A DNA stretch of 64,000 nucleotides from Candidatus Parcubacteria bacterium (GTDB taxonomy: Bacteria; Patescibacteriota; Patescibacteriia; Patescibacteriales; UBA12075), in contig PKTK01000012.1 of the NCBI GenBank assembly GCA_002869165.1, positions 7,275-71,274 on the forward strand, read 5' to 3'. Below the pieces are notes generated by a model. That model was not told the DNA's origin. It saw nothing but the letters and a program-made list of their open reading frames with translations, and did not search any database. The number at the start of each line of letters is the position of its first letter. The first letter of the stretch is position 1. The position numbers and the translations under genes are program-made. Positions 14,536 through 50,960 of the stretch are shown one piece after another.

Positions 14536-14961
14536 CTATCTAGAATATACTCCCGCATCACTAGAGGTTAAGGCACTACCAATAAATACAGTAATAGCAT
14601 AGGCAGCTAGAACTATTATCATACCAATTATCGCAGACTGGATTATAGATTTTGCTTTTTCCACATTCTGTTCATTTCCTCTCGCAAACATCCAAGTAAA
14701 ACCACCATAGATCATCAAAAGAAAAAAGAAAACTCCAACAAGAGACAAAACTATTCCAACAATCCTACCGATAGCTTGAGGAATATCCGTCATAACACTA
14801 TTTCCATTCAAGCCCCCAGTACCAACTTCATTTCCCAAATATCCTGTATTAGCTGCCTCATTAAGACCTTCAAAAGCATTGTTAGCCATAGCAAACAACG
14901 GTGTCATTAATAACACAGCGAATAAAAAACTAAAAATATATTTTCTAAAAAATATTTTCAT
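14536..14961 (-). CDS. TrbC/VirB2-like pilin family protein
   Basis: The internal Met start (MKIFFRKY...) avoids overlap with the upstream gene. Core GGFTWMFARGNEQNVEKAKSII. Confidence 0.7.
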   Translation of the reverse strand: MKIFFRKYIFSFLFAVLLMTPLFAMANNAFEGLNEAANTGYLGNEVGTGGLNGNSVMTDIPQAIGRIVGIVLSLVGVFFFLLMIYGGFTWMFARGNEQNVEKAKSIIQSAIIGMIIVLAAYAITVFIGSALTSSDAGVYSR

Positions 14962-14965
14962 TATT

Positions 14966-15361
14966 TTAACCAATTGAAGTTTGTATTGCATTTAACACAA
15001 AAGTAGCTAAAGCAAATGCTGCTAATATTATAACTAAGCCAATGGTAGCATTAGCTAGTAATTTTTTGGCTTCTGTAACTTTATCTTCATTTCCTCCAGC
15101 TGTCATCCACTTAAAACCTGCAAATAATATTAGGCAAATAGCAACGATTCCCAAAAAACCCAAAACAACATTTATAATATCAGCTACTATTAATCTTGGA
15201 TCCTTTTCAGTGAAGCCTCCCATTTTGTTTCCAACTTCTTCTTTGTTTGGAAATATGTCAACTTTCGTATTGTCAGCTGAAACGCTAAGAGGAGTAGACA
15301 TAAAAGAAAAAGCTAATGACAAAAAGAAGACAAAAGCAAGTGTATTTTTTAAAAATTTCAT
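14966..15361 (-). CDS. TrbC/VirB2-like pilin family protein
   Basis: Signal peptide plus AGFKWMTAGGNEDKVTEAKKLL..IGLVIILAAFAL. Confidence 0.75.
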   Translation of the reverse strand: MKFLKNTLAFVFFLSLAFSFMSTPLSVSADNTKVDIFPNKEEVGNKMGGFTEKDPRLIVADIINVVLGFLGIVAICLILFAGFKWMTAGGNEDKVTEAKKLLANATIGLVIILAAFALATFVLNAIQTSIG

Positions 15362-15374
15362 TTTTTTTATTTAA

Positions 15375-15776
15375 TTATAAATCATTAGTTGTTACTCTAA
15401 AAATCGCATCCAAAACAAATGATGCTAGAGCATAAGACGCTAAAATTATTACCAAACCTATAACACCTGCTGACAAAGTCTTTTTGGCTGAATCAACTTG
15501 ATCGGTATTGCCCGCAGCAGTCATCCATCTAAAGCCAGCATATAGAATAATGCACACTGAAAGTATTCCTAAGAATCCTAATATTAAATTTATGATATTT
15601 GCAGCGATCAGTCTAGGATCATCATTTCCCAGTGCAGTTCGTGACTGAATATTTTCAGCTTGTCCTCCCCAAACAACATTATTTGCACTTCCAGAATTAG
15701 CATCAACTGCTGTGGCTAAACCTAAAAACAAAGAAAAGAGTAAAACAAAACTAAATATTTTTTTTGCTATTTGCAT
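15375..15776 (-). CDS. TrbC/VirB2-like pilin family protein
   Basis: Signal peptide plus AGFRWMTAAGNTDQVDSAKKTL..IGLVIILASYAL. Confidence 0.75.
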   Translation of the reverse strand: MQIAKKIFSFVLLFSLFLGLATAVDANSGSANNVVWGGQAENIQSRTALGNDDPRLIAANIINLILGFLGILSVCIILYAGFRWMTAAGNTDQVDSAKKTLSAGVIGLVIILASYALASFVLDAIFRVTTNDL

Positions 15777-15886: not shown

Positions 15887-16351
15887 TTAAAATCCTACGT
15901 TTGAGCCACTTGTTGTTACACGGAAAATAGCATCTAATACAAATGCGGCCAAAGCGTAAGCAGCTAGAATGATAACTAAACCAATCACACCTGAAACCAA
16001 AAGTCTCTTAGCTTCAGTTACCTTGTCCTCGTTACCTGCTGCAGTCATCCATTTAAATCCACCGAACAAGATCAAAACAACAGCTAAAATACCAAGGAAA
16101 CCTAGCATTAGGTTAATGATATTAGCTGCAATGTTTCTTGGATCATCATTTCCAAGAGAAGTTCTTGCTTGAATGTCATTGTTTCTAGTGTCCCATAGAG
16201 TATTGTTGGCACCTCCAACTTGAGTATTCCACCCTGTTCCACCTCCGACATCATTGTCATTACCTGCCATTGCTACTGTAGCGCTAAGCATAGAGAAAGC
16301 GAATACAAAAATAACAATAGCAGTGCTTATTTTTTTCAAAAATTTTGTCAT
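15887..16351 (-). CDS. TrbC/VirB2-like pilin family protein, first gene of the array
   Basis: Signal peptide plus GGFKWMTAAGNEDKVTEAKRLL..IGLVIILAAYAL. Followed by two hairpins at 15777-15886. Confidence 0.75.
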   Translation of the reverse strand: MTKFLKKISTAIVIFVFAFSMLSATVAMAGNDNDVGGGTGWNTQVGGANNTLWDTRNNDIQARTSLGNDDPRNIAANIINLMLGFLGILAVVLILFGGFKWMTAAGNEDKVTEAKRLLVSGVIGLVIILAAYALAAFVLDAIFRVTTSGSNVGF

Positions 16352-31643: not shown

Positions 31644-31733
31644 TTTACTAATTGAAAGAGGTCTATCCGGCAACTGACATAAACCAAGTTTTCAAAAATA
31701 AAATATCAATATCAGATCTTTAATCATAGGGCT

Positions 31734-31781
31734 CTGTAATAGTGTCATCTATAGTGTACACTATAGATGACACTATTACAG
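31734..31781. repeat. 48-bp perfect zero-spacer palindrome
   Basis: CTGTAATAGTGTCATCTATAGTGT|ACACTATAGATGACACTATTACAG, verified base by base. Confidence 0.9.
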
Positions 31782-31841
31782 ATATGATATTGAATGCCTA
31801 ATACAAAAAAACAAGCTCTTTCGAGCTTGTTTTTATATTCT

Positions 31842-32026
31842 GAGCGGGTAACGGGAATCGAAGTGGCGGAAGCCACACACCATCACTTATTTATGTTTTT
31901 TTATCTTAAATTCAATAATCTTTTATTTTTATATTCTATTATTTAAATACGCTTCTCAATCAGATTCATTACCGAAACTCACTCAGAAATAACAAAACAG
32001 CTCTGTTCGAGCTGTCTTGTTATTTC
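31842..32026 (-). mobile_element. cargo-less mini-insertion at the tRNA-Gly 3' end (element C)
   Basis: 31842-31862 is 21/21 identical to 32029-32049 (tRNA T-loop to 3' end), offset 187 bp. A hairpin GTGGC-TTCC-GCCAC (tRNA orientation; 31863-31876) abuts the ghost copy. A terminator follows each copy. Confidence 0.5.
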
Positions 32027-32101
32027 TGGAGCGGGTAACGGGAATCGAACCCGTCTATCCACCTTGGCAAGGTGATGTAATAGCCACTATACCATACCCG
32101 C
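32027..32101 (-). tRNA. tRNA-Gly (anticodon GCC), CCA encoded
   Basis: Reverse complement: GCGGGTATGGTATAGTGGCTATTACATCACCTTGCCAAGGTGGATAGACGGGTTCGATTCCCGTTACCCGCTCCA. The cloverleaf and T-loop GTTCGATTC are intact. Confidence 0.9.
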
Positions 32102-32282
32102 AAGTTTATAATTTTCAATTTCAAAACAAATAAGTTCTTTTTGAAAAGAAAAGAAAAGGCTTTTGGCCTTAACTAAATGTATTATAGATAATATTTTAAT
32201 ATTTGGCAAGGGCTTGATTTTGTTTTAAAATTAGGATATAATCAGACAGATATGTCAATTATGACATAAATGTATAAAAAAT

Positions 32283-32849: not shown

Positions 32850-33237
32850 GGGGATGCTGGGTTTCGATAGAGAGACTATCATTTTGCATTCGAGATGAGT
32901 TCGTGGGAGTCTCATAAAAACTTTCACACCTAAATAAGTGCAAAAAATGTACTAGCAAAAGCTAAAGCTGCTTTCAGCATGCCAGCTTTTGCACCTGTTG
33001 TCGCTTAAAATTGCCACAACCATCCGACTTCTTGATGTCTAGTAGGGAAGACCCGGGTGTCATATCACTAGACTGGACCCGAGTGTGCGGTTAACTTTGG
33101 TCGAGATTTATCAAACTGCTCGCTGTTTATTTTTTTGTTTGGTTTTTAGATAAACAGTTAAATCACAAACTAATCTAGTCTTCGTAAAATTGTAAAATGT
33201 AACTTTCTAGACGCGAGTTCAACTCTCGCCATCTCCA
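32850..33237 (+). ncRNA. ssrA: tmRNA (SsrA)
   Basis: 5' GGGGATGCTGGGTTTCGA. 3' T-arm GCGAGTTCAACTCTCGC plus acceptor CATCTCC-A with the G3:U pair. Candidate tag ORF 32940-33008 is AKNVLAKAKAAFSMPAFAPVVA*. Adjacent to smpB. Confidence 0.9.
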
Positions 33238-33238
33238 C
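33216..33238 (+). repeat. attL core (part of the functional tmRNA 3' end)
   Basis: Identical to 41857-41879. Confidence 0.85.
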
Positions 33239-34418
33239 AATCAGAAGCAGAACCGAAAGGTTCTGTTTTTGGTTTATTGTTAGCATTAAACTGGACTCCT
33301 AATGACTTCATAATATCTACAAATTGAGCCTTGTTTATTTGCTCACTGTCCATATACTGTCCTTTTTTAGACAAAAGCTTGATTGAGTCCTCTAAAGTTG
33401 AAGGTGAAAGATGGGCGTATCGCATCGTAGTGGAGACACTGCTGTGTCCCATTAACTTTTGAATAACGACTATTGGACAGCCTTTCATCGCCAGATGACT
33501 GGCAAAACTGTGACGAAGGGCGTGCCACATAATCTTTCTGTCTTCCTTATTTTTTAGGTCTAAATTGCTTATAGCTTTTTTTAATGCCCTACGAGCGAGG
33601 TTTTCCTCAAGAAAGTTTCCATTTTTGTCTGTAAAAACAAAACCTTTTGATTTTTTCCTTCTTTCAAATATTTCACGAACCTCATAATCAAAAGGAATAT
33701 GTCTTTCCTTGCTGTTTTTTGGCACTCCTAATATATTTCGGTAGAAAGACTTTCTGACTGAAATAACATTCGTCTCAAAATTTATATCTGACCAACTTAA
33801 TGCACGAATTTCGCCATAACGAAGTCCTGTTCGCAAAACAAGCAATATCATATCTTTTAACATCCCATCAGTTGAACTTAATAATAAATCACTTTCTTCA
33901 AATGAAAGAAAATCATAATCTTGTGGAGGGACTTTTAAAAGTTTTATTTTAGGTTTCTTTTCAAGTTCGCTCCACTCAACCGCAAATTTAAGTATCGTGT
34001 TTAGAACAGTGATGTGTTCATTGATAGTCTTGTTGGCTAATCCCTTATTTTTGTTTAATGCCTTAAACTCTTCTATATTTAAACTTGTAATTAAATCCAG
34101 TTTTTTCTTTCCAAAAAAGGGGATGAGGTGCTTATTGAGAATGCTTGCCCTACCACGCACTCCTGAAATTTTACAATTATTCTTCACATAAACTTCGTGC
34201 CATTTCCAGGCAAATTTTTCAAATACTTCAACTTCCTTTTGCACTTTCTTAACAAAAGGATTTTCACCCTTTACCAATTTTTGCATTATCAATCTTTCAA
34301 AAGCTAAAGCTCCGTTTCTACTATTTTCAGGAGACTTCTTTCTGTATCTTTTACCTTGGTAACGAATATCAATGAACCACTTATTATTGGTGGTGTGTTT
34401 ATTTTTTATTACTGCCAT
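33219..34418 (-). CDS. tyrosine-type site-specific integrase
   Basis: Motifs: TGLRYGEIRAL (Arg I), HALRHSFASHL (H-x-x-R), GHSSVSTTMRYAHL (catalytic Tyr). The start is taken at MAVIKNK.... The last codons run into attL. Confidence 0.9.
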   Translation of the reverse strand: MAVIKNKHTTNNKWFIDIRYQGKRYRKKSPENSRNGALAFERLIMQKLVKGENPFVKKVQKEVEVFEKFAWKWHEVYVKNNCKISGVRGRASILNKHLIPFFGKKKLDLITSLNIEEFKALNKNKGLANKTINEHITVLNTILKFAVEWSELEKKPKIKLLKVPPQDYDFLSFEESDLLLSSTDGMLKDMILLVLRTGLRYGEIRALSWSDINFETNVISVRKSFYRNILGVPKNSKERHIPFDYEVREIFERRKKSKGFVFTDKNGNFLEENLARRALKKAISNLDLKNKEDRKIMWHALRHSFASHLAMKGCPIVVIQKLMGHSSVSTTMRYAHLSPSTLEDSIKLLSKKGQYMDSEQINKAQFVDIMKSLGVQFNANNKPKTEPFGSASDCGDGES

Positions 34419-34614
34419 ATACATCTTCAATACTGTCAATATTAAAACTATTTTTGACCTTATCAAGATTAAAACGGATTTGTCTGCCGACTTTAAAAAA
34501 AGGAATTTTGCGTTCTGTTACAAGACGATAAACAGTTGTAACAGAAACTTGCAACTCATCAGCAAGTTCTTCACCCTTTAAAAAATCTTTAGTTTTATTA
34601 TATTCAGTATTCAT
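34399..34614 (-). CDS. excisionase / MerR-AlpA-type HTH DNA-binding protein
   Basis: LKGEELADELQVSVTTVYRLVTERKIPFFKVGRQIRF. Lies immediately upstream of and overlapping the integrase. Confidence 0.8.
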   Translation of the reverse strand: MNTEYNKTKDFLKGEELADELQVSVTTVYRLVTERKIPFFKVGRQIRFNLDKVKNSFNIDSIEDVYGSNKK

Positions 34615-34704
34615 TACAATTTTTAAGGAGCAACATAGAGCCGACGGGTGATGTCGGGTGGACTATGTCGCAACCTTATCACAATTTTTATTAAATTCAA
34701 ATAT

Positions 34705-35580
34705 CTAATTTCTATTTAAATATTTTTCTAAAATTTTCTCCATTTCTCTTTTTTCTTCCTCTGTAATCTCTACTGATTTATTTATATCTGCAATTACATC
34801 CAAAAAATCATTTTCAGCCAAATTTTCATTCATTATACTACCTCTTTTATTAAGTTTATTGTAAAAATCAATAATGGTAATTATACTTTCATTTTCCAGA
34901 AATTTTTTAATTTCATTTTTATAGTCATCAACCAGCTCCCAGTCGGATTTTTTAATAAAATTTATATCATAATTTGAATGTATTAAATCAATTAAGTATA
35001 AATGCTTTTGAATGTGTTTAATTGCTTTTACTGTGTTTACTAATTTTCTTTGAAAAATAATATTTGGCTGGTTGTTTGGCTCAAGCTCTTCTGGCTCAAC
35101 ACCTTGAGGCGAAAAATAATCAATAAGCTTGATTACATCAAAACCTAAATAATTTTTATCATCAAAAATTTCTTCTATTTTTTTGAACACCCTGTCAGCA
35201 TCCTCTTGGTCTAAACTTTCATTCAATAAATTATAAATTTTCTCTAAATTATTTTCTTCTTTTCTTAATAAAATAAGTTTTACATCAAGCCCAATTATAA
35301 AAGTGTTTAAACTATTTAAAGCTGATTTATAATTTAAATATGCGGTTTGTAAATCCAGGATTATATAAGTAAAACTATTATAAAAAGCAATTAGCTTATT
35401 ATATTCTTCAACTTCTCTTGGGGTGGTGCAAATACCATTCTCCAGCCTCTCTTGCTCTAAAACGCTTATTATTCGCTCTCCACCATCAGTAACTGAATTA
35501 TTATTGGCAAACAATAACTCCACTTTCTCTTTAAAGGGTAAATTTTTTGATAAATTTTTAAAATCAATTTTGCTCTTCAT
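34705..35580 (-). CDS. hypothetical island protein
   Basis: 291-aa ORF. No motif recognised. Confidence 0.55.
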   Translation of the reverse strand: MKSKIDFKNLSKNLPFKEKVELLFANNNSVTDGGERIISVLEQERLENGICTTPREVEEYNKLIAFYNSFTYIILDLQTAYLNYKSALNSLNTFIIGLDVKLILLRKEENNLEKIYNLLNESLDQEDADRVFKKIEEIFDDKNYLGFDVIKLIDYFSPQGVEPEELEPNNQPNIIFQRKLVNTVKAIKHIQKHLYLIDLIHSNYDINFIKKSDWELVDDYKNEIKKFLENESIITIIDFYNKLNKRGSIMNENLAENDFLDVIADINKSVEITEEEKREMEKILEKYLNRN

Positions 35581-35584
35581 ATGT

Positions 35585-35962
35585 TTAGTTTAATTTTATT
35601 TTCTTTTTAACCACTATTGCTTCAATGGTTTCAATTTTTGACTTGATAGATATTTGCTCATAAGCTTTTAGTAGTTGCCCAGAAAGAACTCCGATGCAGT
35701 TGGCAGTTTTGTTATCCATTCTTCCTCCTCTAACCTCATTTATTACTTCGTTTAGTAGAGAAATTATATCCTCTGCTTGTTTAATCTCTATGGGATGTAA
35801 GTTGTGTTTAATTAAATTTTTATTTGCAATACCACCATTTCTGCGAGCTTGCATTTTTTCTTTTTCAGATATTTTTTCACTGTGCCAAAAACAGTGCTGT
35901 TCTCCTTTCAATGCCCGTGATAAACATTGACCTCCTTTTTCTTTTTTGTGTTCACATTGCAT
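35585..35962 (-). CDS. hypothetical island protein with an N-terminal C-x10-C-x12-C-x2-H knuckle
   Basis: MQCEHKKEKGGQCLSRALKGEQHCFWH resembles the CxxKxxxGxxCxxxAxxGxxxCxxH motif common in phage and plasmid proteins. Confidence 0.55.
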   Translation of the reverse strand: MQCEHKKEKGGQCLSRALKGEQHCFWHSEKISEKEKMQARRNGGIANKNLIKHNLHPIEIKQAEDIISLLNEVINEVRGGRMDNKTANCIGVLSGQLLKAYEQISIKSKIETIEAIVVKKKIKLN

Positions 35963-36080
35963 ATAAGTTAACTTATGGGGGGGCTATATTGTTACTCTAT
36001 TGTTTGTTTATTTAACCTTAAAGGAGATAACTATATAGTTCCTATATTTAGTATTATAGTAATATACTACTGTTCTATAA

Positions 36081-36425
36081 TTAAAAATTAATTTTATCCA
36101 CTTCAATTTCCGTGTCATTATCACGAATACTTTTGCCTATTAAATAGTTATCATACTCTTCGCTAAACTGATTTAATGCTTTTTTTGTCAATTCGTCCCA
36201 AAATATTTTATCTTCTGTAAAAAATATTTTCTTCCATTTTTTGTCCCCATAAGGCACGGACGGAGGGTAAAGAACAAATTGTTGGGTATTAGTTTCAAAT
36301 TTTGATTTACGAATTGTAAATCCGTTGATTTCAAATTGAGCAACTAACATTGTTCCGATTGCTGGCAATTTTTCATCATCACGATAAGTAAATTTAAAAT
36401 TTACATCCTCAATGCTAATTTTCAT
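36081..36425 (-). CDS. hypothetical island protein
   Basis: 114-aa ORF. Confidence 0.5.
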   Translation of the reverse strand: MKISIEDVNFKFTYRDDEKLPAIGTMLVAQFEINGFTIRKSKFETNTQQFVLYPPSVPYGDKKWKKIFFTEDKIFWDELTKKALNQFSEEYDNYLIGKSIRDNDTEIEVDKINF

Positions 36426-36583
36426 AAAAATATATTAATAATTAAAAAACCTATACTAATTATATTATTAGTATAGGCTATAAATATTGGCTAAAAATAA
36501 TAGGTTACATTATTTATTTTTTTAATCAATTTTGTAAATTATTAATAAATTCCACTATAATAAATAATCTAACGGGTTACATT

Positions 36584-37597
36584 TTAGGTTACATTCTTTT
36601 TTCTGTGCTTATTAACCTTTCTTGCATTTCTTTTCCTTTTGCATTCTGGTCTAATTTTTTCCGAACAAACTTCACCTGAATACCTTCTTCCATCTGGATT
36701 AAATAAAGGTAAAATTCTATTACATTCTGCACATCTTCGGACTTCATTTTCAGAAAGATAAAGTAATTCATAATATAAAAGCGATTTATAGTCATTAAAT
36801 ACTATTACACAATCCTCTCTTTCGTCAAAGGTGCATCTTTTAGTAAAGTTTTCAATGTTTTTTTTATTTATTTTTTTAGTTTTTAGTGCATTATTATTCA
36901 GAACTCCATCACACATCTCTACTAATTCCCATATTGCCTTGTTGCAATTAAAAATTTTCTTATACTTTAAATCTTGTCTTAAAAATTCAACATCCTCTTC
37001 TGTTATTTGGTTTAAATATATTTTTTCTTCATATTTTTTTATTATTTTGTATATTTTATTTGCCTCATCTTGTGTAATTCCAAAAATATCTAAATTATCT
37101 TTTTTTTCAAAAACATCAGTAAAGCTATACATTCTCCATTCCAGCAAGCCACCATAATCTACATACTCCACATTTATAGCAGGCATTGTCTTGTATGTAA
37201 TATCATCTTTCATATTGCTAAAATATTGTTTAATAGAGTCGCTACCCTTGGGCATTAAAGACCCTTTTAAGTATACTTGATTTCCAGCATTGTGATATTC
37301 CACAGAAACTAAAAAAACCAAGGAAAATTGCTTGTCATAAGGAGGTGATAGTTCGTAATTAAAAATATCACAAGAAACAGTAATATCACAAACTTCATTT
37401 ACTATCCTTTCAAGCTCGCCCTCATTTTTAAGGTATAATTCTACCAAGGAATTATCTTCCTTTTCTATATCTAAATCTTCTAATTTTAATTCGCTTGCTT
37501 GCCATCTCGGTATTATAGCAATACATTTATGTTCAACATAACCCAAATTTTCATTAATAACATCTCTTGCCCTTTTTGTTGTATACTTTTTAGCCAT
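36584..37597 (-). CDS. hypothetical island protein with a C-terminal Cys cluster and basic tail
   Basis: 337 aa, ending ...RRCAECNRILP...GEVCSEKIRPECKRKRNARKVNKHRKK. Confidence 0.6.
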   Translation of the reverse strand: MAKKYTTKRARDVINENLGYVEHKCIAIIPRWQASELKLEDLDIEKEDNSLVELYLKNEGELERIVNEVCDITVSCDIFNYELSPPYDKQFSLVFLVSVEYHNAGNQVYLKGSLMPKGSDSIKQYFSNMKDDITYKTMPAINVEYVDYGGLLEWRMYSFTDVFEKKDNLDIFGITQDEANKIYKIIKKYEEKIYLNQITEEDVEFLRQDLKYKKIFNCNKAIWELVEMCDGVLNNNALKTKKINKKNIENFTKRCTFDEREDCVIVFNDYKSLLYYELLYLSENEVRRCAECNRILPLFNPDGRRYSGEVCSEKIRPECKRKRNARKVNKHRKKNVT

Positions 37598-37803
37598 TTT
37601 AAAAATTAAAAAACTATGTCATTATAGCCGAGAAGCTATTCAGAGACGCAGAAAGGTTTAACTCCTCTGGACAAGAAGAGTAATCTCTAAATTAAATCTC
37701 GGCTACAAGGACAGAGCCATAATTTATTTCCTTTCTGCTTTGTTAATGTTTAAATGAAGTGTCCAGTTTCACTATTATTAATATATCAATTATATTATTA
37801 TAG

Positions 37804-38667
37804 TCAATTATTTTTAATTGTATTTTTAATAATAAATTCTAAATACTCTTTGTTATTGCCAAAAACTGTTTTTGCACTTCTAACTGTTCTTTTGATTATA
37901 TTATCAAACTGCCTTTCGGTTATATCAATATATTTTATATCGTTATTGGTAAGTAGGTCCCAGTTTGCATACAAAACAATATTAGAAGTTAAAGGCAAAG
38001 TAAACTCTATGTCTTTATGTCCAAACCCAGCTCTTGCACCAATTGCGTTAGGTCCAAATTTTTTTTCTCTTTCAGGGCTACATATATGTGCTGGATTATC
38101 AGAGGATATAAAATTTTTATCCTTTGGTGCTGTTAATAGCTTCCAGTGCATATTATATAAATAATTTGCAACATACAAAGAAGTGTTCATTGAACTATTT
38201 GCGAAGTGCGAATTAAAATTTTCTAAACCTTCTTTAATTTCGTCTATGCTAACACCCTTACCAGAAGAGGCTGGAGGCAAATAACTATCACTGTTATTTA
38301 CAGAAAAATTTTTTGAGCTTTCTGCAATATCATTCAAAAATCCCCTAAACTGCTCTCTATTTAATCTAATTCTGTTAAAAATTGTTGATGTATAAATGGA
38401 TAGCCATAATTTATCGGTGGTGTTAATTGGTTCTTTATTATTTATTTTATTTTTAATAATTTTTGAATATTCACTTTCTAATTCCGACAAACTCTCCTCA
38501 ATATCAAGAGAGCCATTAACAGTATTATAATGACCTTCTTTAAATTTATTTAGCGGGTTAGTTTTATAAATCCTGTCGTCCTCTTCTAAAACCCAAATTT
38601 TACCATCTTTATCGGCAAAATTTTTCTGGTAAGTTACACTAATGTAATGGTGATAGACTTTTTTCAT
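37804..38667 (-). CDS. DUF4238-family protein
   Basis: N-terminal HHYISVTYQKNF and C-terminal W..L......FISSDNP are signatures I associate with DUF4238. Confidence 0.6.
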   Translation of the reverse strand: MKKVYHHYISVTYQKNFADKDGKIWVLEEDDRIYKTNPLNKFKEGHYNTVNGSLDIEESLSELESEYSKIIKNKINNKEPINTTDKLWLSIYTSTIFNRIRLNREQFRGFLNDIAESSKNFSVNNSDSYLPPASSGKGVSIDEIKEGLENFNSHFANSSMNTSLYVANYLYNMHWKLLTAPKDKNFISSDNPAHICSPEREKKFGPNAIGARAGFGHKDIEFTLPLTSNIVLYANWDLLTNNDIKYIDITERQFDNIIKRTVRSAKTVFGNNKEYLEFIIKNTIKNN

Positions 38668-38718
38668 AATTTTAGATTATTATATGTAGTTACTATATTA
38701 TTTTTTATATAATTAAAC

Positions 38719-38766
38719 AAGAAAAAACCTGCGAAAGCGTTGTTTTGCTATCGCAGGTTGTGTTGT
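38719..38766 (-). terminator. terminator, copy 1 of a duplicated ~48-bp module
   Basis: On the minus strand, CCTGCGA...TCGCAGG is followed by TTTTTTCTT. It nearly matches 40122-40169. Confidence 0.6.
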
Positions 38767-38782
38767 ATAAAGTTTCAAGTTT

Positions 38783-39436
38783 TTAACTTATGATATTTTT
38801 TGCATTATGTATAAATGCTTTTAATTTTTCATTGCTTTTAAATCCGCTTTCTCCTTTCGTGCCAGAGTTGGCATCAACACCGAAAGGTTTTACTGCCTGG
38901 ATTGCCTCATTAACATTTTCAGGATTAAGTCCTCCTGCTAAAAAGACAGGCTTTCTGTATTTTTCTACTATCTCACGACTTAAATCCCAATCGTGTGTTA
39001 TTCCGGTTCCTCCAACTTGGTCAGTTTCAAGGTTCACGGTATCCAACAATATTGCATCTACGGCATTTAAATATCCATAACCATTAGCAATAGATTTTTC
39101 ATTTACCACGTGCAGGGATTTAATCAGTTTTATATATGGTATTTTCTCCCTGATAATTTGGGCGTCATCTGGCGTGCTGTCACCGTGCAACTGAATAGTT
39201 GTTACTCCGATGAATTGAGCAAGCGAAACAATTTCTTCATTATCAACAAGATGGGTTACAAATACGGATGAACAAAATGGAGGCAAATGACTCACTATTT
39301 TTTTAGCAAATTCTTTATCAATAAAATCAGTTGATGAATGTTTTTGCCCAACCAGCAAACCGATTGCATCAGCACCATAGAATACTGCCATCAATGCATC
39401 CTCTGTGCTTTTTATACCGCATACTTTAACTCTCAT
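38783..39436 (-). CDS. trpF: phosphoribosylanthranilate isomerase
   Basis: MRVKVCGIKSTEDA...GADAIGLLV...TIQLHG...GGTGITHDW...FLAGGLNPENV...PFGVDANSG matches canonical TrpF along its full length. AAGGAG RBS. The ORF-track N-terminal extension is rejected. Confidence 0.9.
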   Translation of the reverse strand: MRVKVCGIKSTEDALMAVFYGADAIGLLVGQKHSSTDFIDKEFAKKIVSHLPPFCSSVFVTHLVDNEEIVSLAQFIGVTTIQLHGDSTPDDAQIIREKIPYIKLIKSLHVVNEKSIANGYGYLNAVDAILLDTVNLETDQVGGTGITHDWDLSREIVEKYRKPVFLAGGLNPENVNEAIQAVKPFGVDANSGTKGESGFKSNEKLKAFIHNAKNIIS

Positions 39437-40019
39437 TTTTTTCTCCTTTTGTTCTATGTTTAAGAATAAGTTCAAGTAAAATTTCAGCATACCAGTCTGC
39501 GACTTCAACCATTGCATCGGTTGCTTCCTTGTCATTGGAATAAAGTCTCTTGCCAAAGTTATCAATTTTTCTTTCGCATTTTGAAAAAAGAATACTAACA
39601 AGAGAGGAATGGTGGTTGCATAGACAAAATTCAATATATGCAATCATTGCTCTTTTGAGAAATTCTGGAGACTCTGCATTAATACAGTCAATAAAATGTT
39701 CTGCTATTGCGTTAGCCACTTCTTTGTCATCGCCAGCTTCTGTGAAATGGGCATAAGGCAACAAAAAAAGCATTTCAGTTTCTTTGTTGAAATCAATCAC
39801 TTCCTCAAGATAGCCCTTAACTTCAACTATTGCCTTTTTCGCTAAATCACTCAAAATGCCTGGATAATGCTCTTTATCTAAATACACAGCAAGAGCTTCA
39901 ACACCATCACCTCCGTTATTAAAAACAGATGCTTCCATAATCATCTTTTTGTTCAATCCAATAATATATGGTATTTCGTGCCATTTGATTGCTCCAACTC
40001 CACCGCCTATTGTAAGCAT
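39426..40019 (-). CDS. hypothetical island cargo protein
   Basis: 197 aa with a GGAGGAGG RBS. Overlaps the trpF start by 11 nt. Confidence 0.6.
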   Translation of the reverse strand: MLTIGGGVGAIKWHEIPYIIGLNKKMIMEASVFNNGGDGVEALAVYLDKEHYPGILSDLAKKAIVEVKGYLEEVIDFNKETEMLFLLPYAHFTEAGDDKEVANAIAEHFIDCINAESPEFLKRAMIAYIEFCLCNHHSSLVSILFSKCERKIDNFGKRLYSNDKEATDAMVEVADWYAEILLELILKHRTKGEKNES

Positions 40020-40121
40020 AATTTCCTCCTCCAGTTTGAATATTTTGTATTACAAATTATTATCAAGGTTCAAATATGATTATATATGTTTATCATATTT
40101 TATATAAAAAATCAAGAATAA

Positions 40122-40169
40122 AAGAAAAACCTGCTAAAGCGTTGTTTTGCTCTTCGCAGGTTGTGTTGT
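40122..40169 (-). terminator. terminator, copy 2 of the duplicated ~48-bp module
   Basis: AAGAAAAACCTGCTAAAGCGTTGTTTTGCTCTTCGCAGGTTGTGTTGT compared with 38719-38766. Confidence 0.55.
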
Positions 40170-40184
40170 TTGTGGGTTTATTGG

Positions 40185-40415
40185 TTAAAGCCACCAAAAG
40201 GTTTTGTTGTTTTTGGCTAACCCTTTTCCAATTTGCTCACGGACATCTGCAAATGAATGAAGGGCGAAAAGATTGAAAGTTTTTCCATCTCTTTCTATGC
40301 TACGACCGGTGTCACTCACTTCCATAGCGTCAAAATCAATCATTAGCATTCCGCCGTCTTTTACAGACATTATCCGTAGTTCGTCAAAATTTGCGTCTAC
40401 TGCTATTACAGCCAT
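40185..40415 (-). CDS. hypothetical small island cargo protein
   Basis: 76 aa with an AAGGAGGG RBS. Confidence 0.55.
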   Translation of the reverse strand: MAVIAVDANFDELRIMSVKDGGMLMIDFDAMEVSDTGRSIERDGKTFNLFALHSFADVREQIGKGLAKNNKTFWWL

Positions 40416-40427
40416 TGAAGCCCTCCT

Positions 40428-40931
40428 TTATTCATCGTAAAGATAATTAGCCAACACGGCGAATATCTCGTTGTTGTTTCTTTTGGCGATGTCTTCTGCG
40501 TTTATAAGGGACAACAAATCCAGTTCAATGGCGACAGCCATCATCACGGCTTCATCGGCTTGTTCAGGCAGTCCAGAAAAGGAAAGGATGTAGTTGTCGG
40601 CAACGATAGCTCCGCCCCATTTCCCGTTATCAGGGTCACGGCTTTCATAGCTGGTCATATGACCAAGCTCAAAGTGTGTAGAAATAAGCCTTGCTCCTTT
40701 CTCTTCGGAGTTGTAGGAGTAAGCTGACCATTTTTCTTGCGGAACAGGTTTGCCGACAATACTTACAAACTCAAGTCTTTTAGCGCCAAGGCTGTAAATA
40801 CTGACATAGCCTCCTTTTTTGAGGATGCCTTTACTTGTTGCAAGTTCTGGGTAATTTTTAACAAGAATGTTAACAATCTCCCCGGTTTTTTCAATTACCT
40901 TTTCAACAACTTTTGCTGTAAATTCGTTCAC
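40428..40931 (-). CDS. hypothetical protein with a GlcG/DUF336-like C-terminal motif
   Basis: GTG start with an AGGAGGG RBS. WGGAIVADNYILSFSGLPEQADEAV parallels the DUF336 GGA(I/V)..G..IGAIGVSG....DE motif. The call is weak. Confidence 0.5.
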   Translation of the reverse strand: MNEFTAKVVEKVIEKTGEIVNILVKNYPELATSKGILKKGGYVSIYSLGAKRLEFVSIVGKPVPQEKWSAYSYNSEEKGARLISTHFELGHMTSYESRDPDNGKWGGAIVADNYILSFSGLPEQADEAVMMAVAIELDLLSLINAEDIAKRNNNEIFAVLANYLYDE

Positions 40932-40943
40932 GCTTCCCTCCTG

Positions 40944-41252
40944 TTATTTAGATTTTTCGGTTTTCATTTCACCAGCCGAGAAAAACCCCTCAACCGCCAT
41001 TGTTTCAGTGTCAATATCAATATTGGCTTCTTTGAGCTTTTCCTTGATTTCATTGCGTGTTTTTTCTTCGGTGGAACAGATGCGGATGTAAGGTGCTGAT
41101 TTGACACTGCTATCAAAAGTCCACACAGTAGATGGGACAAATGTAACAATTGCGTCTTTCTGCAACCCCATATCGTGCATTACCAGTCCGATAATTGAAG
41201 TAAGGTTGCTTGCCTTATTTTCATCCATTCCAAAAATCATAATGTTTGGCAT
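40944..41252 (-). CDS. hypothetical protein starting Met-Pro (tautomerase-superfamily-like N-terminus, speculative)
   Basis: 102 aa beginning MPNIMIFG.... Confidence 0.5.
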   Translation of the reverse strand: MPNIMIFGMDENKASNLTSIIGLVMHDMGLQKDAIVTFVPSTVWTFDSSVKSAPYIRICSTEEKTRNEIKEKLKEANIDIDTETMAVEGFFSAGEMKTEKSK

Positions 41253-41305
41253 TTTCTTTCTCCTAATAAGTCTGTGTTTAAATAATGATAAATAATAAAT
41301 AATAA

Positions 41306-41560
41306 TTACAAAATAGATTTTTTTATTTCAATTTTTGGATTTGACAAGGTGATTACCATTTCAAATTCTAATGTTTTTAACATTTTAATCAAGGTTTCAA
41401 AAGATAAATTTTTTTTACCACCTTCAACAAGTGCAATATAATTTGAGGTTAGCTCCATTTTATCAGCCAGTGTTTTTTGAGATATGCCGTTGTTTATTCT
41501 TGCAGTCTTTAATAAGATGCCCATATCTTTCATTGCTTGTATCTTTATTTTTTCTATCAT
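41306..41560 (-). CDS. XRE-family HTH transcriptional regulator
   Basis: LKTARINNGISQKTLADKMELTSNYIALVEGGKKNLSFETLIKM. Confidence 0.8.
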   Translation of the reverse strand: MIEKIKIQAMKDMGILLKTARINNGISQKTLADKMELTSNYIALVEGGKKNLSFETLIKMLKTLEFEMVITLSNPKIEIKKSIL

Positions 41561-41856
41561 TTAACTCTCCTTTTTCGCTTTATATAATTGTAAAATGAAC
41601 AAAAATTAATATTACAGTATATCACGAAAACTACAAAAAGTCAACTATTTTAGCTGACTCTGAAATTTAATCCCTAATGTCACTTCCTCTATGTTGCATT
41701 GAGCATTTCACTGCCCAAATACTGTCCACGAAGTGGTAATTAATGATTAAATGTGAATAGTAGTGACGACTTCTGCAAATCGGTTTTTTCTTTAAGTTAA
41801 AGCAAATTATTGAATTTTGTTTAACCTTGCAGAAATACTCAATTTGCCTCTTTTAC

Positions 41857-41879
41857 AGTTCAACTCTCGCCATCTCCAC
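41857..41879 (+). repeat. attR core (displaced native tmRNA 3' end, continues ..CCA plus native terminator)
   Basis: Identical to 33216-33238. Followed by an 18-bp-stem terminator at 41881-41922. Confidence 0.85.
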
Positions 41880-42068
41880 CATAATAAAACAGTCATTTGA
41901 AATGGCTGTTTTATTATGGTGTAAATGGTGGGTATGTTTAAATTGCTATGATTATACGCATTATTATCACAAAAAAAACAAATAGCAGGTAGACGGTACA
42001 AAACAGAAAAATTAAAAATATTTTGAGGGGGTGAGGCTTCTGCCTCTCTACTCTCACCATCTCCACCA
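41880..42068 (+). mobile_element. cargo-less mini-insertion at the tmRNA 3' end (element B), in tandem with the island
   Basis: A degenerate third copy of the tmRNA end, TCTACTCTCACCATCTCCACCA 42047-42068 (offset 187 bp), is preceded by TTGAGGGGGTG 42023-42033 and hairpin GAGGC-TTCT-GCCTC 42033-42046. Confidence 0.5.
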
Positions 42069-50636: not shown

Positions 50637-50720
50637 GCCCAGGTGGTGGAATTGGTAGACACGAGGGACTTAAAATCCCTTGGCCGCAAGGCTGTGCGAG
50701 TTCGATTCTCGCCCTGGGCA
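50637..50720 (+). tRNA. tRNA-Leu (anticodon UAA), long variable arm, CCA not encoded
   Basis: GCCCAGGTGGTGGAATTGGTAGACACGAGGGACTTAAAATCCCTTGGCCGCAAGGCTGTGCGAGTTCGATTCTCGCCCTGGGCA. Confidence 0.9.
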
Positions 50721-50901
50721 CAAAAAGGAGAAAACTGAAAAGTTTTCTTTTTTTGTGAAGCCAGGGTGGAAGCGAACTCGCATATGAAGTGCAAAGACTT
50801 CCATTAAAAAAAGGCTCATAAAAAAATAATATTAAAATTGAAAACAAAAAAAATTCTTGAGGGGGTGCCCTTTTCAGGGCTTCGATTCTAGCCCTGGGCA
50901 C
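50721..50901 (+). mobile_element. cargo-less mini-insertion at the tRNA-Leu 3' end (element A)
   Basis: 50881-50901 repeats 50701-50721 (20/21), offset 180 bp. TTGAGGGGGTG 50857-50867 and hairpin GCCCT-TTTC-AGGGC 50867-50880 abut the ghost copy. Terminators at 50729-50755 and 50909-50928. Confidence 0.5.
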
Positions 50902-50960
50902 ATAAATACCTTCTTTTGAAGGGTTTTTACATAAATGTTCTTATAAAAAGGAGAGGAATA

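Follow-up and report, generated by a model that had tools for sequence, protein, structure and literature searches.

The tRNA-Gly(GCC) locus and its displaced 3' end

The window, that is, the whole 64-kb stretch of DNA analysed here, carries an intact tRNA-Gly(GCC) gene on the minus strand at 32101-32027 (ARAGORN; Rfam tRNA, 61 bits), and the 3' end of this gene is present a second time downstream. The 21-nt sequence TTCGATTCCCGTTACCCGCTC, which runs from the first T-loop base to the discriminator, has two exact occurrences in the window, at 32049-32029 and 31862-31842, where 0.01 matches would be expected by chance; the perfect recurrence described in the first-pass annotation is therefore real. 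The proximal repeat, X_A (TTCGATTCCCGTTACCCGCTCCA, minus strand, 32049-32027), continues from the first T-loop base to an encoded CCA and forms the left end of the element. The distal repeat, X_B (TTCGATTCCCGTTACCCGCTCA, minus strand, 31862-31841), has a CA end and is the displaced ghost of the original tRNA 3' end, with the same GCTCA end as in relatives. The contrast between a proximal CCA and a distal CA, also pointed out earlier, can be read directly from the sequence, and neither the ghost nor the tRNA-Gly(GCC) gene in any of five relatives has the CCA that X_A encodes. The 5' part of the gene (32101-32050) is native, and the last 23 nt are inferred to come from the element.

Each copy of the repeat is followed by a terminator on the minus strand. 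Terminator A (31984-32028) is a long palindrome of an A-tract, a GC stem and a T-tract (RNA fold -20 kcal/mol, z = -6.0) whose arms begin within the last bases of tRNA-Gly, and terminator B (31800-31839), found by a terminator scan with a 12-pair stem, is presumably the original tRNA-Gly terminator. Both fold strongly and they are related to each other, as the first-pass annotation had proposed, with a local alignment score of 33 over ~36 nt that was reached by only 2 of 1000 shuffles. The direct repeat thus consists of 21 exact nt and roughly 36 nt at ~80% identity, close to the ~55 bp originally estimated. Only X and the terminator are repeated at this locus. The intervening ~125 nt have no second copy and end in the box and hairpin of the family described below, and because foreign sequence without a second copy lies at the joint, the locus does not qualify as a simple tandem duplication. 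The 331-nt locus is identical base for base in three independent assemblies (JGI, ENA and Logan), so it is not an assembly artefact. The contig of the window has been seen again in several metagenomes.

The direction of the event can be read from related genomes. SmpB is encoded beside tRNA-Gly, and its homologues come from Parcubacteria and Falkowbacteria. The tRNA-Gly(GCC) site is empty, with a plain terminator, in L187 (78% SmpB identity), in L182, L183 and L184 (70%) and in L185 (71%), and in these empty-site relatives the gene ends in GCTCA without an encoded CCA, matching the distal ghost of the window. In L150 (84% SmpB identity) the gene also has the GCTCA end, and no element is found in the 152 nt before the contig ends, short of the position where a ghost would lie. 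The empty-site count is accordingly given as four relatives with 70-78% SmpB identity, and L150, whose contig is too short, is not counted. The tRNA-Leu(TAA) gene is likewise occupied in the window and in L182 and empty in L147 and L153. At the Falkowbacteria tRNA-Ala gene, the ghost is directly followed by a 30-nt native spacer and then by the next tRNA gene, which indicates that the strong intergenic terminator came with the element. Together, the empty sites, the GCTCA ends and the tRNA-Ala locus identify the proximal 3' end and its terminator as the newcomers and the distal copy as the displaced original.

Right end, inverted copy and interior of the element

Directly before the ghost, in tRNA orientation, lie a G-box (GTGATGGTGT, minus strand, 31886-31877; family consensus TGAGGGGGT) and a terminal hairpin (GTGGC-TTCC-GCCAC, minus strand, 31876-31863) with a 5-bp stem and a 4-nt loop. 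The hairpin abuts the first T-loop base of the ghost and marks the right end of the element, so the arrangement is as first described. The Gly box, TGATGGTGT, deviates from the consensus TGAGGGGGT and resembles the box of the Falkowbacteria tRNA-Ala copy, TGAAGGTGT; it had been remarked on as more diverged, and it falls within the variation of the family. A covariance model trained without the Gly copy gives the Gly right end 41.0 bits, with a rough E of ~1e-7. With filters off, nothing in the background of the 64 kb exceeds 11.4 bits, and the model makes no match to the gene's own intact T-arm. One model scores all three right ends of the window, those at tRNA-Gly, tRNA-Leu and tmRNA.

The hairpin shows the compensatory changes that the first-pass annotation had suggested looking for. 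In an alignment of eight right ends, 95% of the cells are paired and all five base pairs have changes on both sides. Pair 2 occurs as A-T, T-A, G-C, C-G and G.T, and the Leu copy has its whole stem flipped. Covariation as high is not reached in any of 500 shuffles, and slid registers all score far lower. According to RNAalifold, no further helix is conserved from the terminator to the ghost, and a search of 31700-32150 against Rfam 15 returns the tRNA only, everything else being far below the gathering threshold. The interior was also considered as a structured RNA, and this was rejected on the same RNAalifold and Rfam results.

The element contains a further copy of the target, in inverted orientation, which is an addition to the earlier picture. 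X' (CTGAGTGAGTTTCGGTAATGAATCTGA, minus strand, 31986-31960; alignment and folding) is an imperfect inverted copy of the 5' strand of the T-stem, the T-loop and the 3' strand of the acceptor; aligned with the reverse-complemented 3' part of the tRNA, it agrees in 20 of 31 columns. Every element has the T-arm and acceptor strand of its own tRNA in this imperfect inverted form 3' of the terminator (222 of 309 aligned columns match), giving a long palindrome that starts in the T-arm, passes through the terminator loop and returns. Compared with the direct repeat, the inverted copy extends 5-6 nt deeper into the tRNA. When 230 nt are searched by strict local alignment, the inverted copy is significant for the Leu element only; position-constrained alignment and head-swap folding find it in all copies. 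When tRNA heads are exchanged among loci, the tails of eight of nine elements fold best with the cognate head, and none of 20,000 permutations has a mean energy as low; the Gly head ranks first of eight (-51.5 kcal/mol, against -47.2 kcal/mol for the best non-cognate head). Most empty sites lack both the inverted copy and the palindrome. Transition mismatches in the X/X' pairing are biased towards those that would form G.T on the tRNA-sense strand (22 versus 7), which hints that the sense strand does the folding.

The remainder of the interior is an AT-rich spacer (minus strand, 31959-31887) that starts with TTGAGAAG (31959-31952). This start contains the TGAGAA motif common to several copies, where it lies at the position expected for the complement of the T-loop. 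The spacer has no conserved structure and no significant similarity to the copies of other genomes. An nhmmer profile built from copies outside the window does not find the Gly interior, its best match in the window being the Leu interior with E = 0.49. Since interiors show no significant similarity across genomes, a copy is assigned to the family by its right end, architecture and length, and not by its spacer sequence.

No ORF lies within the 187-bp element. Transposase, reverse transcriptase, cas-like, cas1, tnpB and iscB-like domains are absent from the window ORFs that were scanned (those of at least 150 aa and a few shorter ones), so the element must be non-autonomous. An autonomous, gene-carrying relative with the same ends was not found, and no helper enzyme has been identified for the element.

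Sister elements and distribution in CPR genomes

All three tRNA-type genes of the window are occupied by such a unit. The tRNA-Leu(TAA) gene (50637-50721) carries an element on the plus strand at 50701-50902, recognised by its repeat, its G-box and hairpin and the covariance model. Its X_A lies at 50701-50722, the inverted copy at 50754-50782, the G-box TTGAGGGGGT with the hairpin GCCCT-TTTC-AGGGC at 50857-50880, and the ghost, with one mismatch and a spacing of 180, at 50881-50902. The element of the tmRNA gene (32850-33238) was recognised by the same kinds of evidence and is found on the plus strand at 41859-42068, beyond a genomic island. Here a first ghost (41859-41881) is followed by the G-box TTGAGGGGGT with the hairpin GAGGC-TTCT-GCCTC (42023-42046) and by a second, diverged ghost (42047-42068), 188 bp beyond the first. 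The layout is the same as at tRNA-Gly, as the first-pass annotation had recognised. Its view that the Gly locus holds a mini-insertion akin to these two is supported by the shared model, the covariation and the empty sites in relatives. Two observations would have spoken against it, namely a lack of statistical support for the box and hairpin, or the same duplication without a hairpin in relatives; the similarity is statistically supported and the sites of the relatives are empty.

The island lies directly after the tmRNA gene, is 8.6 kb long and is of the T-loop integrase class, with a tyrosine integrase at 33219-34466 (Phage_integrase, 1.9e-31). This is the sole integrase in the window, and it belongs to the tmRNA island and is separate from the 187-bp element. 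The island arrived after the mini-element and separates it from the tmRNA gene. Neither a G-box nor a hairpin is present at the right end of the island itself, and its integrase was for this reason rejected as an obvious helper.

The family comprises 12 complete copies with a repeat-to-repeat spacing of 178-187 bp and the same order of parts throughout. They occupy at least six kinds of gene (Gly, Leu, Lys, Tyr and Ala tRNA genes and the tmRNA gene) in at least five CPR lineages. Apart from the three copies of the window (tRNA-Gly, tRNA-Leu and tmRNA), copies are found in Falkowbacteria at tRNA-Lys, tRNA-Tyr, tRNA-Ala(CGC), tRNA-Leu(CAG) and tRNA-Gly(TCC), in the pair of Parcubacteria MAGs L182/L184 at tRNA-Leu(TAA), in L142 at tRNA-Tyr (from the metagenome scan), in L189 at the tmRNA gene, and in L147 at an unidentified tRNA at a contig end. 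A strict right-end pattern gave 11 matches in a set of one genome per species, two of them real and both from Candidatus Falkowbacteria RIFOXYD12_FULL_34_57 (at tRNA-Lys and at a tRNA-Tyr ghost), and 11 matches in metagenome contigs, three of them real. These real matches identified the CPR host range. The further copies (Falkowbacteria Ala, Leu and Gly, L182, L184, L147 and L189) come from loci fetched via SmpB homologues. Overall, of some 35 tRNA-type genes that were sampled across these CPR genomes, about one third carry the unit. A ghost, or its intact tRNA gene, lies at or near the end of several contigs. In viral contigs, the strict right-end pattern has no match and all 120 loose-pattern hits among the matches listed are due to chance; viral scans with the 3' segment of the Gly gene return only ordinary intact tRNA-Gly genes, and those with the Tyr segment return no match.

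In every tRNA copy the junction falls at position 53/54; in the tmRNA copies it is shifted inwards by one base. The block of identity between the functional copy and the ghost is 22-30 nt long, with a minimum of 22 nt and the same tRNA start position in every young copy. The ghost is identical to the functional copy in five young copies, and its divergence ranges from 0 to ~25%, the box and hairpin decaying roughly in parallel. Such joint decay is as expected for a selfish element after insertion. In most copies nothing is duplicated past X (plus at most 8 nt), and terminators A and B, which are related at the Gly locus, are unrelated in most copies. Copies in different tRNA genes of one genome have homologous interiors and differ in X; the interiors in the Lys, Ala and Gly genes of one genome are closely related. 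Lineages of the element also follow the target, as for two Falkowbacteria Gly genes and for the tmRNA copies of the window, L147 and L189. Only the left part is present at the Falkowbacteria tRNA-Gly(GCC) gene, at the L147 tmRNA gene and probably at the L153 tmRNA gene, and L147 also has a 1.6-unit tandem.

Nature of the element and possible modes of movement

The segment 32049-31863 (187 bp, minus strand) is one copy of a non-coding, non-autonomous family of insertions at the 3' parts of tRNA and tmRNA genes. The insertion, its membership in the family and its anatomy are demonstrated by the comparisons above, and the enzyme and the mode of movement are inferred. The hosts are CPR bacteria of the Parcubacteria/Falkowbacteria type. 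In its constant size, its presence or absence between relatives, its decay and its shared interiors, the family behaves as a selfish site-specific mobile element, and it is very probably a mobile, site-specific insertion family.

Tyrosine-integrase elements at tRNA genes are classically recognised by a direct repeat from the T-loop to the gene end (PMC4383910, Islander database). As with the genomic islands and prophages of tRNA and tmRNA genes, the element splits the gene, supplies a new 3' end and leaves a displaced T-loop-to-end repeat, and repeated insertions produce tandem ghosts, as at the tmRNA gene of the window. Of the features that define such elements, the displaced 3' repeat, the T-loop boundary and the unoccupied sites in relatives are all present, and only the integrase gene inside the element is missing. 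A T-loop sublocation of tyrosine integrases in tRNA and tmRNA genes was reportedly described by Williams in 2002. Unlike the islands, the element consists of only ~160 bp of non-coding DNA without integrase or cargo, its ends are a conserved box, a covarying hairpin and an inverted target copy, and related copies occur in many different tRNA genes of one small genome.

Other non-autonomous elements can be compared as well. CIMEs of streptococcal ICEs are non-autonomous and kilobases long, MITEs of DDE transposons have terminal inverted repeats and 2-10 bp target duplications, and PATEs of IS200/IS605 have subterminal hairpins and a precise insertion point, 3' of a fixed tetra- or pentanucleotide, without target duplication or rebuilding of a gene, and depend on a Y1 transposase in the genome. 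The element resembles all three in being short, non-coding, present in several copies and presumably moved by an enzyme encoded elsewhere, but we know of no parent element for it. It does not fit the MITEs, since its two ends, X_A and the hairpin, do not form an inverted repeat and the duplication is 22-30 nt. Like the PATEs it has hairpins near both ends, yet it has a 22-nt repeat; G53 precedes the junction and a variable T-stem lies upstream. No Y1 transposase was found in the 64-kb window, which leaves the rest of the genome uncovered.

Overall, the best explanation is a site-specific, non-autonomous element moved by a recombinase acting in trans, which we regard as reasonably probable; the trans-recombinase mechanism taken by itself is more tentative, a plausible proposal that falls a little short of being probable. 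Given the classic repeat from the T-loop to the gene end, recombination in trans at the edge of the T-loop is the simplest model. The element sits at the 5' edge of the T-loop, with tRNA positions 53 and 54 on either side of it, and brings a replacement segment from the T-loop to the 3' end (with CCA in the Gly case), so that the gene stays intact. This segment is followed by the element's own long palindromic terminator, the imperfect inverted copy of the T-arm and acceptor, ~70 nt of AT-rich spacer, and a TGAGGGGGT-like box with the 5-bp, 4-nt-loop hairpin, whose end coincides with the junction. The gene's earlier 3' end (CA) and its earlier terminator are thereby displaced 187 bp downstream as a decaying ghost. 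Strand exchange by the recombinase would take place at the edge of the T-loop, much as with the integrases of islands that target tRNA genes, and X/X' and the terminal hairpin may work within a folded single strand or cruciform resembling the duplex target. A folded circle cut at position 54 would present a target-like segment, a loop, the inverted copy, the remainder of the circle and then the hairpin before the junction. The covarying hairpin, the target-specific X/X' and the strand-biased G.T mismatches suggest that structure, and not sequence alone, is recognised.

Folded single-strand recombination sites are known from the attP(+) of CTX phage with XerCD (PMC3442271) and the attC of integrons (PMC4792948). 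As in these, the inverted repeat of the element can fold into a mimic of the duplex target with imperfect pairing around the crossover, structure is kept over sequence, integration would be hard to reverse and copies accumulate in tandem. Unlike the element, CTX attP and attC target dif or attI and not tRNA genes, and they carry genes or cassettes. The signs that single strands are involved are indirect only, and consist of the X/X' complementarity, the covariation and the G.T bias. A more specific form of the proposal holds that elements of ~160 nt move as folded single strands in which X/X' mimics the target and the terminal hairpin provides the other half-site, that a host or phage recombinase inserts them into nearly every kind of tRNA or tmRNA gene at the edge of the T-loop, and that the target parts are re-templated by fold-back synthesis. 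It is on balance unlikely, though worth keeping in view, since re-templating from the target gene would explain how one family comes to occupy many tRNA genes of a roughly 1-Mb genome. Reverse transcription from the mature tRNA was rejected as a source, because the complement of the tRNA end matches the gene version (…CACA) and not the mature CCA; the reported absence of group II introns from Patescibacteria (PMC13011429) was also counted against reverse-transcription models.

Among the alternatives, transposition with a long target-site duplication would involve staggered cuts, one at the T-loop edge and the other shortly beyond the end of the tRNA, with gap filling that duplicates 22-30 nt, and the element proper would then extend from the terminator to the hairpin. 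Cas1-type integrases, which duplicate the CRISPR repeat, and casposases, which duplicate 14-15 bp, are parallels. Such a process would account for a repeat of at least 22 nt with a constant tRNA start in each young copy and for the identity of ghost and functional copy in five of them, and related interiors in different tRNA genes would follow easily if X were copied from the target. It is nevertheless quite unlikely, because at the Gly locus the proximal copy has CCA and the distal copy CA, and because the palindromic terminator and the inverted copy are complementary to a particular target, so that the element is matched to it beforehand. That lineages follow target identity (the Falkowbacteria Gly pair and the tmRNA copies of the window, L147 and L189), that the identity block varies from 22 to 30 nt, and that the scanned window ORFs hold no transposase or cas1 domain also weigh against it. 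The observation that fragments of tRNA and tmRNA genes are a known footprint of island integration (PMC4383910, PMC9897764), together with the intact island in the tmRNA gene of the window, suggests instead scars of multi-kilobase islands whose interiors were deleted and whose att arms fused. Independent deletions would not yield 12 copies in several genes and genomes with one spacing and one order of parts, however, the resident island lacks the G-box and hairpin at its right end, and many different target-specific islands would be required in tiny CPR genomes; this origin is very unlikely.

Two further explanations are both highly implausible. A local replication error, with fold-back priming at the terminator hairpin and template switching, could produce a direct-inverted-direct triplication without any mobile element. 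The order of the copies, the extension of the inverted copy past the repeat into the 5' strand of the T-stem, the related terminators A and B at the Gly locus and the fact that the tmRNA gene of L149 shows a simple tandem duplication of 81 bp are all in its favour, but the filler is not random, with the same box and covarying hairpin at every junction, interiors are homologous between different tRNA genes of one genome, and the duplication in most copies stops at X (plus at most 8 nt). The other explanation is a guide-type RNA of the host or of an element, in which the box and hairpin would be the handle, followed by a 22-nt match to the tRNA 3' end and a terminator, as in a crRNA or a TnpB right-end RNA. 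Type V-K CASTs have delocalised crRNA homing spacers, and TnpB right-end RNAs have guides derived from the flank; the hairpin handle adjoining ~20 nt that match the 3' end of a tRNA gene is similar, the 5-bp stem and 4-nt loop stand directly before the target match and terminator, and G.T pairs are tolerated on the sense strand. Unlike these systems, the element has no effector gene (no cas, tnpB or iscB-like domain in the scanned window ORFs) and no structured scaffold, its interior having neither conserved structure nor an Rfam match, and old copies decay, so they are not maintained by the host. A role of the G-box as a target guide was rejected as well, since duplex energies with cognate and non-cognate targets show no preferential pairing with its own (permutation p = 0.65).

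The favoured model, a recombinase acting in trans on a site-specific non-autonomous element, accounts better than any of these for the combination of a shared box and hairpin, a constant length and an inverted copy matched to the target. It has difficulties of its own. A target-specific 3' segment carried by the element is hard to square with the closely related interiors that occupy Lys, Ala and Gly genes of one genome, a double-stranded circle of only 183 bp makes a poor substrate for recombination, and the covariation of the hairpin is unlike the legacy of a recombinase that reads sequence in double-stranded DNA. The loci with only the left part and the 1.6-unit tandem require additional steps of deletion or tandem insertion.

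No description of a tRNA-rebuilding element of roughly 160 bp was found in the full-text literature searched, where multi-kilobase islands appear as the sole source of tRNA fragments and group I introns are described in tRNA genes of Patescibacteria. The element belongs with the tRNA-targeting integrative elements and could form a separate class if the single-strand mechanism holds. Fragments of tRNA and tmRNA genes are routinely attributed to multi-kilobase islands, and here ~160 bp of non-coding DNA leave the same footprint. With its 9-nt box and a 5-bp hairpin set precisely against tRNA position 54, the conserved right end offers a compact candidate recombination site that can be put to the test. 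The ghosts and hairpins can break assemblies at tRNA loci. For the host, the element exchanges the terminators and 3' ends of essential RNA genes, and in the Gly case turns a gene without CCA into one that encodes it. If the family is mobile, it would represent a new class of non-autonomous element for site-specific rather than DDE recombination. To our knowledge, the mobile elements of CPR bacteria are poorly known, and a mobile family of this kind would offer a handle on DNA mobility in these organisms.

Tandem and partial mini-elements

L147, a locus of a relative, carries the mini-element (the short non-coding unit inserted in tRNA and tmRNA genes) as 1.6 tandem units on the minus strand (15250-15675). 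After the ghost, the displaced original 3' end of the gene, the terminator, the inverted copy and the left spacer appear again over about 103 nt with one mismatch, and beyond this second partial copy lies unrelated DNA. Three loci at tRNA-Gly(GCC) and tmRNA genes have only the left part of the element: L153 9200-9395 (minus strand), L147 10954-11040 and, probably, L153 10900-10990. Each has an element-type terminator and an inverted copy, and the G-box, the hairpin and the ghost are all absent from these three loci.

Surroundings of the Gly ghost

A 50-nt perfect palindrome, TCTGTAATAGTGTCATCTATAGTGTACACTATAGATGACACTATTACAGA, lies at 31733-31782, just past the terminator of the Gly ghost, with a fold energy of -29.9 kcal/mol (z = -7.8). 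The contig L003, from one assembly, begins about 20 nt past this palindrome. The short contig L004, from another sample, starts inside the ghost itself (L004 1-20 correspond to window 31843-31862) and differs there from the window by one base, G to C; this difference could reflect either true variation between samples or an error at the end of the contig.

Gene 3' ends and the tmRNA island

Most tRNA and tmRNA genes of the window genome and of the relatives L147, L150, L153 and L182 end in ...N-CA-A and not in an encoded CCA (for example, window 50720-50722 and 33236-33240), and the terminator stems of these genes start right at the final bases of the gene. The window tmRNA gene holds an 8.6-kb island integrated at the T-loop (33239-41858), with genes for a tyrosine integrase (minus strand, 33219-34466), an excisionase-like HTH_17 protein and a DUF4238 protein. 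The tmRNA 3' end supplied by the island lacks CCA, and CCA is encoded in both older tmRNA ghosts. Elsewhere in the window, two paralogous small proteins with T4SS pilin/TrbC-VirB2 domains (14536-14991 and 15887-16351) are encoded among otherwise housekeeping genes.

Other duplications at tmRNA genes

In the Parcubacteria MAG locus L182 (3985-4240), and also in L183 and L184, a unit of about 125 nt that contains GC-rich hairpins is present twice in tandem directly 3' of the tmRNA gene. In L184 the stretch that separates the tmRNA gene from tRNA-Ala additionally contains a small GIY-YIG ORF. The tmRNA gene of the Falkowbacteria relative L149 (10849-11010) has an 81-bp tandem duplication that begins at the T-loop and takes in the terminator, which is identical in the two copies; a 29-nt GC-rich hairpin interrupts the second copy. 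Since the G-box is absent from this L149 duplication, the hotspot was hit here by an event of another kind.
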